From: Pristiophorus japonicus | Lineage: Eukaryota | NCBI RefSeq assembly: GCF_044704955.1 | Contig: NC_091987.1 | Coordinates: forward strand, 86,242,001 to 86,306,000 | Length of the DNA stretch: 64,000 bases | Direction of reading: 5' to 3' | Part shown: in pieces, positions 54,424-56,145 of the stretch | How the letters are laid out: each line of letters begins with the position of its first letter | Position numbering within the stretch: position 1 is the stretch's first letter | The notes under the pieces: model-generated | What the model was told of the DNA's origin: nothing | Database searches by the model: none | The model's input: only the letters and a program-made list of their open reading frames with translations | Made by a program: the position numbers and the translations under genes

Positions 54424-55710
54424 GATTAAAAAGCAGATAGTTGCAATTTTGGTTTTGTTTGATTCAAACTGGAATTCAAAATTATTTTTTACAGAAATGG
54501 CCAGTTAAAAAAGACAGAAAGAAGTACTTTTTGTACAAAGTACAATGCACTCCTCTCTTTCTAAGGAAATCCTCACCTTTTGTACAGTTCTTTTGGTTTC
54601 GTGAAGAACTACAATTTGGGGTTTCTGCACTGGATTATACAACAGTGTGCATATTTCCCAGAGTGCCTCTGTTGGTTTGATTGGACCTGTATTTTGCACT
54701 GGCTCAAGACCATTTTGGATTTGCCTGGGCTGGGAAAATTGCTACTGACATTTCAAGTATTTGCGTCAGTTTTGCTCTCCTTTATCCGTTTCTCCTCAAG
54801 GTGGTGACCAATGCTAGGATACAGTTCTACCCCAGGTGATTTGTGTCCCTCTAATATCGCCTTCAATTGTCCATTCTTATGTGACTATATTATGTTGGTG
54901 AGCTATTCACCCATAAGTGCCATCACAGTTGGGGTCTTGTTCTTAATTGTAGAAGATGGGCCGAAAAGCTGTTAGAGTTGAAATCCTCAAGACACCTTGT
55001 TCTTGTGCCTTTCATGTTCTGCAAAGCCCATTGATTGAATATTGCAACGCTGTTTATCTCAAGTGGTGGTTCATTCCAACTTGGTTCGCTCCATACTCGT
55101 ATAGCCCGTGGACTTGCTGAGGATGCCTCCTCTGTTCATTTTCTATAACATTGCACAGATGTCAGACTATCTGTCATCTATAAGACCAAAACAATAATTA
55201 AACCAGATCTCCATGTTTATTCCACGAATATGAACTGCAACAGAATTAGTTTAAACATTTGCATAATATAGGAATAATAAAGCATCCCAAGCCCCTCTCG
55301 TTGCTTTTATAAGTCTTCCCTTTGCATAAAAGTTAAAATACGGAATTAACCATCTTTTTCAAAAGATTACCGAAAGCATATTACTCTATGGGAGGGGAAG
55401 GGGAATATGTCCAGTGTTATAAAGCTGGAACAAATACTCGAGTTTTCTGACGACAAATTTGGCACTTCTTTCAAGATACTTTTGAAATCTTCTGTAATGG
55501 TTCAGTTATGTACAACTTACAAATTGTGGCCTCAGATGATTTTACTGCACAAGTAGGTCAGAAGTGAGCTTTGCAGATGTGAGTATTTTAAAAATAGTTT
55601 TTTGACTTTTTTGTTGCAATCTCAATCCAGATAGAGCCCTTTGCTCTTAACATTTTTCAATTGTTAATTGTTCTGTGTCCTAAATATAATAGAATTATTT
55701 TGCATCCTTT

Positions 55711-55937
55711 TTTTTTTAAATTCATGTCCAATCGTTATCCAATCGTTACAATTCTTTGTCAAACGCCAGAGGTCACCCTGCACCAGTCAAGGATCACTCT
55801 GCGCCAATGCTCTTAGCCAAAAGGCCTAGAGCCACTGCACCGTTCCTGGAAGTACTGCAATACCAGGTTCGTGCCATGGAGGTGGATGGGTCAGGTCCCC
55901 CACACACCTCCGTGGAGGTGGATGGGTCACCAATCCC
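55711..55937 (-). mobile_element. U2 snRNA-derived retroposon with poly(A) tail and TSD
   Basis: Minus strand has ACCTGGTATTGCAGTACTTCCAGGAACGGTGCA (U2 3' end) then GGCCTTTTGGCTAAGA (U2 5' end); TTGCATCCTTT at 55700-55710 and 55938-55948. Confidence 0.85.
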
Positions 55938-56145
55938 TTGCATCCTTTATAGGAAGCCACACATCCAGCTGCAGAGACTGATTTACTTTGTTTAGATAAG
56001 CCATCCCAGTTTAAAATGTAAATCCATTAAAACATTTGTAATTAATGGCTTTGATGAAATAGTTCAGTGCACAGTGTTTATGAAAATTCCAATAATGTGG
56101 GGTTTCTTATGCTCCTAGTAACTTTCATTAGCGATATGCAGAGAA

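Follow-up and report, generated by a model that had tools for sequence, protein, structure and literature searches.

How does a genome come to hold a short insert in which a 3' piece of U2 snRNA stands before a 5' piece, and what would copy such an insert? The question is raised by a locus of Pristiophorus japonicus, inside a window of 64,000 nt (the whole stretch of DNA that was analysed), where we found a 227-nt insert on the minus strand, bounded by 11-bp direct repeats (Table 1). The insert is a 5'-truncated copy, nt 123-342, of a young SINE of ~342 nt. That this is a real, young, multi-copy SINEU-type element seems to us near certain, and our main reading, to which we give a probability of roughly 0.78, is that the host U2 promoter would drive the transcription of such an element and that Keno would move it.

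The sequence-only reading had described here a poly(A)-tailed retroposon with an 11-bp target site duplication; the duplication, the A-tail and both segments that it quoted are present on the minus strand. Its match of a U2 3' piece followed by a U2 5' piece also holds. With the genome's own U2 gene as reference (locus L031; its own U1 gene was likewise taken as reference), the first of the two segments that meet at the junction aligns to U2 nt 109-186 (60/80 identical, E 3e-12) and the second to nt 7-29 (21/23, E 3e-5), scores that none of 2000 shuffles reached. A hairpin derived from stem-loop III occurs twice in the copy, a doubling that that reading had overlooked. We take the hairpin that follows to be U2 stem-loop IV, with its U2B''/U2A' role. 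An Rfam search of the window region returned no U2 match in the 5'-truncated copy; the best match there, a prion pseudoknot, lay below the cut-off and was rejected as a chance likeness to the doubled hairpin.

Table 1. Parts of the SINE copy in the window, listed 5' to 3' on the minus strand (TSD, target site duplication).
Feature	Position	Strand	Remark
TSD, 5' copy, 11 bp	55938..55948	-	sequence
First stem-loop III-derived hairpin, truncated	55914..55937	-	5' truncation at element nt 123
Second stem-loop III-derived hairpin	55878..55911	-	
U2 stem-loop IV	55837..55874	-	13-nt loop retained
Second U2 head, U2 nt 7-29, stem-loop I	55809..55832	-	without branch-point recognition stretch
Tail, youngest-subfamily type	55718..55808	-	conserved hairpin at 55764-55804
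A tract, 10 A	55708..55717	-	last 3 A within the duplication
TSD, 3' copy, 11 bp	55700..55710	-	sequence

A single-copy origin could be excluded, and the multi-copy U2-derived SINE that had been suggested was borne out by thousands of copies genome-wide. A genome search with the insert gave 906 candidates, with all 40 scored copies identical over 227 nt, and the 35-nt sequence that joins the U2 3' piece to the second head occurs in exact form 4,492 times in the genome (control, 0). Family copies share diagnostic changes that are absent from host U2 and U1, and the tail type of the window copy, with 208 exact matches, is the youngest. The element extends ~120 nt further 5' than the window copy in 29 of 30 fetched loci; among the first 30 matches on the largest contig, a sample chosen by position, we read by eye a head kept in 20 and truncated in 10. 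The many identical copies, together with intact open reading frames in the partner described below, point to a family that is still active. This snRNA-headed family may already be catalogued in Repbase or Dfam.

The full element, which is short (<500 nt), non-coding and polyadenylated, consists of 342 nt followed by an A tract, in the order U2 nt 1-28, U1 stem-loop, T run, stem-loop III twice, stem-loop IV, second U2 head and tail; the snRNA loop names and the protein partners that go with them are presumed. Its nt 1-28 are identical to the host's own U2, and nt ~34-84 align to the host's own U1 nt 3-57, a match stronger in an older form (0/2000 shuffles) than in the youngest (5/2000 shuffles). 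The T run occupies the place of the U2 Sm site. The absence of an Sm site noted from the window copy is correct for that copy, which lost the tract through 5' truncation, but full-length copies keep an Sm-like tract; the branch-point recognition sequence is indeed absent from the second head of the window copy. A T5 run is present in 31/31 aligned copies and would argue against polymerase III, by the reasoning in the accessible text of PMC4494074; Rfam searches of four loci found no tRNA, 5S or 7SL match.

Two proposals made from the window copy found no support. The U2 pieces are not permuted: in the first 230 nt of a full-length copy, RF00004 is matched from model position 1 to 192 without change of order (55.2 bits; gathering 46), so that the 3' piece closes a first unit colinear with U2, and a second unit starts at the 5' piece. 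The order seen in the window is the seam between two units in series, which could have arisen by deletion between neighbouring tandem U2 genes or by a template switch. Nor is there support for the insert as the 3' end of an L1/Tx1 element, given that full-length copies begin at U2 nt 1 and that the ~90-nt tail has no Keno match beyond chance words of at most 14 nt, the SINE and Keno sharing only the U2 head. The tail matches neither U1 nor U2.

The predicted fold of the full element is stable (-149 kcal/mol, z = -6.1; 0/100 shuffles as stable), partly because of the doubled hairpin. Stem-loop III goes from -13.4 kcal/mol in U2 to -26.4 kcal/mol through 10 differences, and none of 5000 random 10-fold mutants was as stable. 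In the tail, a stem shows a both-sided change between the oldest and the later forms and stays though an inserted loop varies. Covariation was weak among 31 copies of the young and middle subfamilies (double change in 1/58 predicted pairs), the doubled hairpin being left unscored in the consensus folding because of gaps. The stretch of U1 that pairs with the 5' splice site is altered, together with its loop, and folded into a longer hairpin, and the branch-point stretch is gone from the youngest form and kept in one 213-copy subfamily. From these modelled structures, snRNP mimicry by the SINE RNA may reasonably be inferred.

The past of the family can be read from its copies, which begin with a whole U2 joined to a second head and lead to a mosaic of U1 and U2. 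In the oldest form found, a whole U2 that has a shared internal deletion and a few bases of genomic 3' flank is followed by U2 nt 8-38 and then by a tail of 46 nt; the head-tail junction of this form has 27 exact matches, of which two are truncated to the second head, and a diverged version is also present. In later forms a U1 piece stands in place of U2 nt 29-96, and stem-loop III was then doubled. In this form the last nucleotide of the second head is nt 38, which is the Keno site, so the tail probably began as an insertion there; a search for the oldest tail without a preceding U2 head returned five matches, all mutated family copies, and thus no source of the tail. In the 213-copy subfamily (exact matches), a head of U2 nt 1-38 is fused to a headless body, as expected if a headless copy had inserted at 38|39 and later been copied from +1. 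At L004:990-1020 and at L225, single copies have an additional U1 5' piece before the U2 head, and resemble the description of crocodilian SINEU-2. Three further copies (L023, L183 and L184) are mosaics whose head and tail come from different subfamilies, which suggests recombination or template switching between subfamilies.

The tie to a Tx1-clade LINE that had been supposed for the insert found support in a Keno-type element at the same U2 site. Keno is a U2-targeting member of the Tx1 clade, according to the accessible parts of PMC6136364 and PMC4640811, and the partner LINE resembles it in the 38|39 site and in the 3' flank, which is the published Keno target starting at U2 nt 39. The partner has a U2 head of its own (U2 nt 1-44), inside which dispersed copies likewise start. 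The partner is 5.7 kb long, resides in the same U2 arrays and has two intact open reading frames, one of 569-570 aa with ZCCHC3-type RNA-binding and zinc-knuckle domains, and one of 1145 aa with endonuclease (PF03372), reverse transcriptase (PF00078) and zf-RVT (PF13966) domains. The best named full-length fish match of the latter, ORF2, is 39% identical, its homologs carrying no element names; among named pieces, identity is highest for short shark fragments (81%, covering 6% of the query). The idea that an altered Keno head escapes the element's own endonuclease was rejected, Keno being inserted at that place in other Keno heads (L100, L108, L110, L117).

Away from U2 the two elements also meet. 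In two of five Keno copies outside U2, the 3' flank matches the one behind a SINE copy elsewhere (43/50 and 41/50 identical, with a background best of 20-25; 61 SINE flanks compared), and a third stands in tandem with a SINE. The SINE itself enters older family members at their own 38|39 (11/11 examined dispersed hits, C1-C8). Of 28 young loci, 10 adjoin another family copy and five lie at one antisense site in the pol region of an LTR retrotransposon; we found no strict target motif beyond an A before a pyrimidine. An automatic caller reported duplications of at least 7 nt in 22/30 and 20/30 loci, some of the calls being false or inflated by tandem insertion. Taken together, the sites make it very probable that the SINE is moved by a Keno-type Tx1 retrotransposon. 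Two young SINE copies (L187 and L203) lie in flanks resembling histone genes, which by eye we take to be histone H4 and H2B coding sequence.

We searched the genome for A tracts that run into U2 from nt 39 and obtained 80 matches (control, 0), many of them in tandem U2 arrays. There, 200 bp of unchanged U2 upstream sequence precede full-length young SINE copies, which begin at +1 and continue into an A tract and U2 39-191, with no duplication, the element ending at U2 38|39. The exact promoter-SINE junction has 17 matches, all in U2 arrays and none dispersed. Across five array stretches with 270 promoter units, 238 are U2 (seven differing slightly), 17 are SINE and 15 are Keno (two of them behind U2 nt 1-53), so that the SINE makes up ~6% of array units and SINE and Keno together interrupt ~12% of the assembled U2 units examined. 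At the array promoters no subfamily other than the youngest occurs. The 17 promoter copies stand for a smaller number of events, and for few in all: a single variant is common to 15 of them, and unplaced contigs may duplicate one another. One more SINE fusion at +1 (L066 compared with L067) belongs to a second U2 cluster, whose upstream region is different. This cluster, on C9 at 111.0-113.8 Mb (L065-L083), consists of a U2 variant in ~20-kb repeats, differs from the main array in stem-loop IV and upstream sequence, and contains, at 38|39, truncated Keno 3' ends as well as older family members. On C19 (69.62-69.73 Mb, L234-L247) a U2 array is nearly full at its edge, where one intact U2, five SINE and 11 Keno units stand behind promoters, and further Keno copies are inserted in the Keno heads there.

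Are these array copies the source of the dispersed ones? Among young copies, 27/28 start at element nt 1-16 and none has U2 upstream sequence. Variants that mark array copies occur at 11 dispersed places among 29 matches, and two of the 11 are the two-substitution form, which 16 array copies have; of these two, one shows a clear duplication and the other (L181) no clear one. A tracts have a median of 53 in the array (n=19) against 20.5 in dispersed copies (n=28). We consider it probable, on comparisons of this kind between copies, that the SINE is transcribed from host U2 promoters. At the same time, the commonest young variants, with three A after the T run, are at 0/17 main-array promoters, and array-marked variants are found in only 11 of ~190 dispersed young copies, so that the assembled array copies may be recent recipients and not the main donors. 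In the C19 cluster there is a single three-A copy, and it follows the 3' end of a Keno element; the three-A copy at the promoter of the second cluster has a private change.

The mechanism that we propose starts from two features of the arrays: SINE and Keno both end at U2 38|39, and the SINE head replaces the 5' end of the U2 gene so that SINE nt 1 is U2 +1. The head would anneal to the target, as proposed for R2 elements, whose target-homologous 28S leaders are suggested in the accessible text of PMC3774820 to give uniform 5' junctions; by analogy, such annealing fits the uniform 5' junctions of the SINE. RNA polymerase II would then start at +1 and run through the SINE, its A tract and U2 39-191, as far as the U2 3' box. 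Because snRNA 3' ends are cut by Integrator (PMC3874203, in its accessible part), the array transcript should carry U2 39-191 after the A tract. No dispersed SINE copies with U2 39-191 behind the A tract were seen, and internal priming must therefore be assumed: Keno ORF2 would use the internal A tract for priming, and dispersed copies flanked by 7-22-bp duplications would result. Source copies would turn over with the U2 array, which could produce the successive subfamilies. In the weakest step, hairpins that were kept or strengthened might give the RNA snRNP-like behaviour (stability, nuclear return), splice-site pairing stretches having been lost or buried. We give even odds to the whole of a wider reading, in which a promoterless SINE mimicking an snRNP would enter the array via Keno, overwrite the U2 5' end, be capped, ride the turnover of the array and spread, keeping hairpins that serve snRNP handling and shedding those that would disturb splicing.

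The explanation that competes most seriously with transcription from the U2 promoter is that the arrays are only a sink, entered because Keno targets U2, while most RNA comes from dispersed or tandem copies through flanking promoters, for example those of the often-entered LTR element or of upstream tandem neighbours, as suggested for crocodilian SINEU. The absence of the dominant young variants from main-array promoters speaks for it, as do the 5/28 young loci at one antisense LTR-retrotransposon pol site and the 10/28 beside another family copy. Yet 5' ends pile up at U2 nt 1-16 with no common upstream extension, array-marked variants do occur dispersed, and the head of the 213-copy subfamily is cut at nt 38; on balance we hold the sink to be unlikely. 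Much less likely still is a host variant snRNA with a cellular role, selected in the U2 arrays, with the dispersed copies as its pseudogenes. Such an RNA would suit the kept and strengthened hairpins (stem-loop III from -13 to -26 kcal/mol, 0/5000 mutants as stable), the z of -6.1 for the whole fold and the share of 6% of array units, but the copies in the arrays have A tracts and break up U2 at the Keno site, the youngest subfamily alone is at array promoters, and the stretches for splice-site pairing are changed or removed.

Two further explanations concern how the composite was made. Template switching by the Keno reverse transcriptase among U2, U1 and tail RNAs could in principle make each composite anew, as the single copies with an added 5' U1 piece (L004, L225) might suggest; however, 40/40 scored copies identical over 227 nt and 4,492 copies with the same junction are hard to reconcile with this, and the shared diagnostic changes, which host U2 and U1 lack, together with the discrete subfamilies largely refute it, leaving it a very slight probability. 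A circularly permuted U2 RNA, its 3' end joined to its 5' end and then reverse transcribed, would account for the junction order in the window and is refuted by the full-length structure, with a first unit colinear with U2 and an oldest form in which whole U2 and genomic 3' flank are joined to a second U2 head; we see practically no chance for it.

Transcription from a U2 promoter and movement by Keno, our preferred reading, place the family next to SINEU-1, -2 and -3, the U1/U2-headed SINEs of crocodilians (Kojima 2015, PMC4494074). As far as the accessible text of that paper goes, SINEU was reported only from crocodilians and is moved by a Keno-related Tx1 group, and its transcription is stated as an open question, repeated in the accessible part of PMC5786205. 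By this published description, the two families have in common a U1/U2-derived head, repeated U1/U2 additions, a length <500 nt, poly(A), an internal oligo-T, tandem insertion with duplications between copies, the lack of a 3' tail common with the LINE, and a probable Tx1-clade partner close to Keno. They differ in that the host here is not crocodilian, in the target (the U2 gene itself, Mariner-N4 for SINEU), and in copies at +1 of intact U2 promoters, of which the accessible text of PMC4494074 contains no report. The step-wise origin from the genome's own U2 points to a birth independent of crocodilian SINEU.

Other relatives are more distant. The passages available from PMC6136364 and PMC4640811 do not mention a passenger SINE of Keno, whereas the element found here is a non-coding passenger. 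The SIDEs of R2 are likewise non-autonomous, reside in a tandem RNA-gene array and are co-transcribed from the host promoter (PMC3414825, accessible part), but they derive from LINEs by deletion, have a ribozyme and the 3' end of a LINE, and stay within rDNA, whereas our SINE is built of snRNA pieces, is spread genome-wide and has no LINE tail, its 3' end not being common with that of the partner. U2 retropseudogenes and snRNA-L1 chimeras, as PMC4494074 describes them where accessible, are also made by LINE reverse transcription and have flanking duplications; they are one-off copies, in contrast to a family with subfamilies and shared diagnostic changes. A search of mainly open-access papers found nothing on SINEU in sharks or other non-crocodilians or on SINEs at U2 promoters, and no account of this family or of such a mechanism.

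The use of a host promoter would explain how promoterless SINEUs get transcribed, and snRNA-headed SINEs appear to have arisen outside crocodilians too. With likely source copies, their promoter and an intact partner enzyme in one genome, along with marker variants, the transcription question becomes directly testable. If the wider snRNP-mimic reading is true, it would offer a general answer for SINEU transcription, and a live SINE would have taken over ~6% of a vertebrate's U2 genes.

Some further features of the window deserve mention. In the SINE tail (55718-55760, minus strand) words that we take to be CCAAT boxes are repeated in reverse, and one such word lies beside a presumed octamer word in the Keno 5' UTR (locus L085); a weak promoter role of the CCAAT-box words in tandem SINE runs is possible. 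A LINE reverse transcriptase fragment, presumably CR1-like, begins ~200 bp from the SINE copy (56150-57200, plus strand). Elsewhere in the window, at 24380-25400 on the minus strand, there is a chimeric retrocopy with 28S, 5S and LINE-like parts: a 28S rRNA 3'-end piece (25157-25248, E 8e-8) directly followed by a whole 5S rRNA (25038-25156, 79.8 bits), then by a 158-codon open frame, which by its motif we take to be a Tx1/L1 ORF2 C-terminus, and an AT-rich end. A repeat of ~17 nt flanks the LINE-like part, and the whole may represent either a SINE with a 28S/5S head or a LINE that inserted behind 5S.
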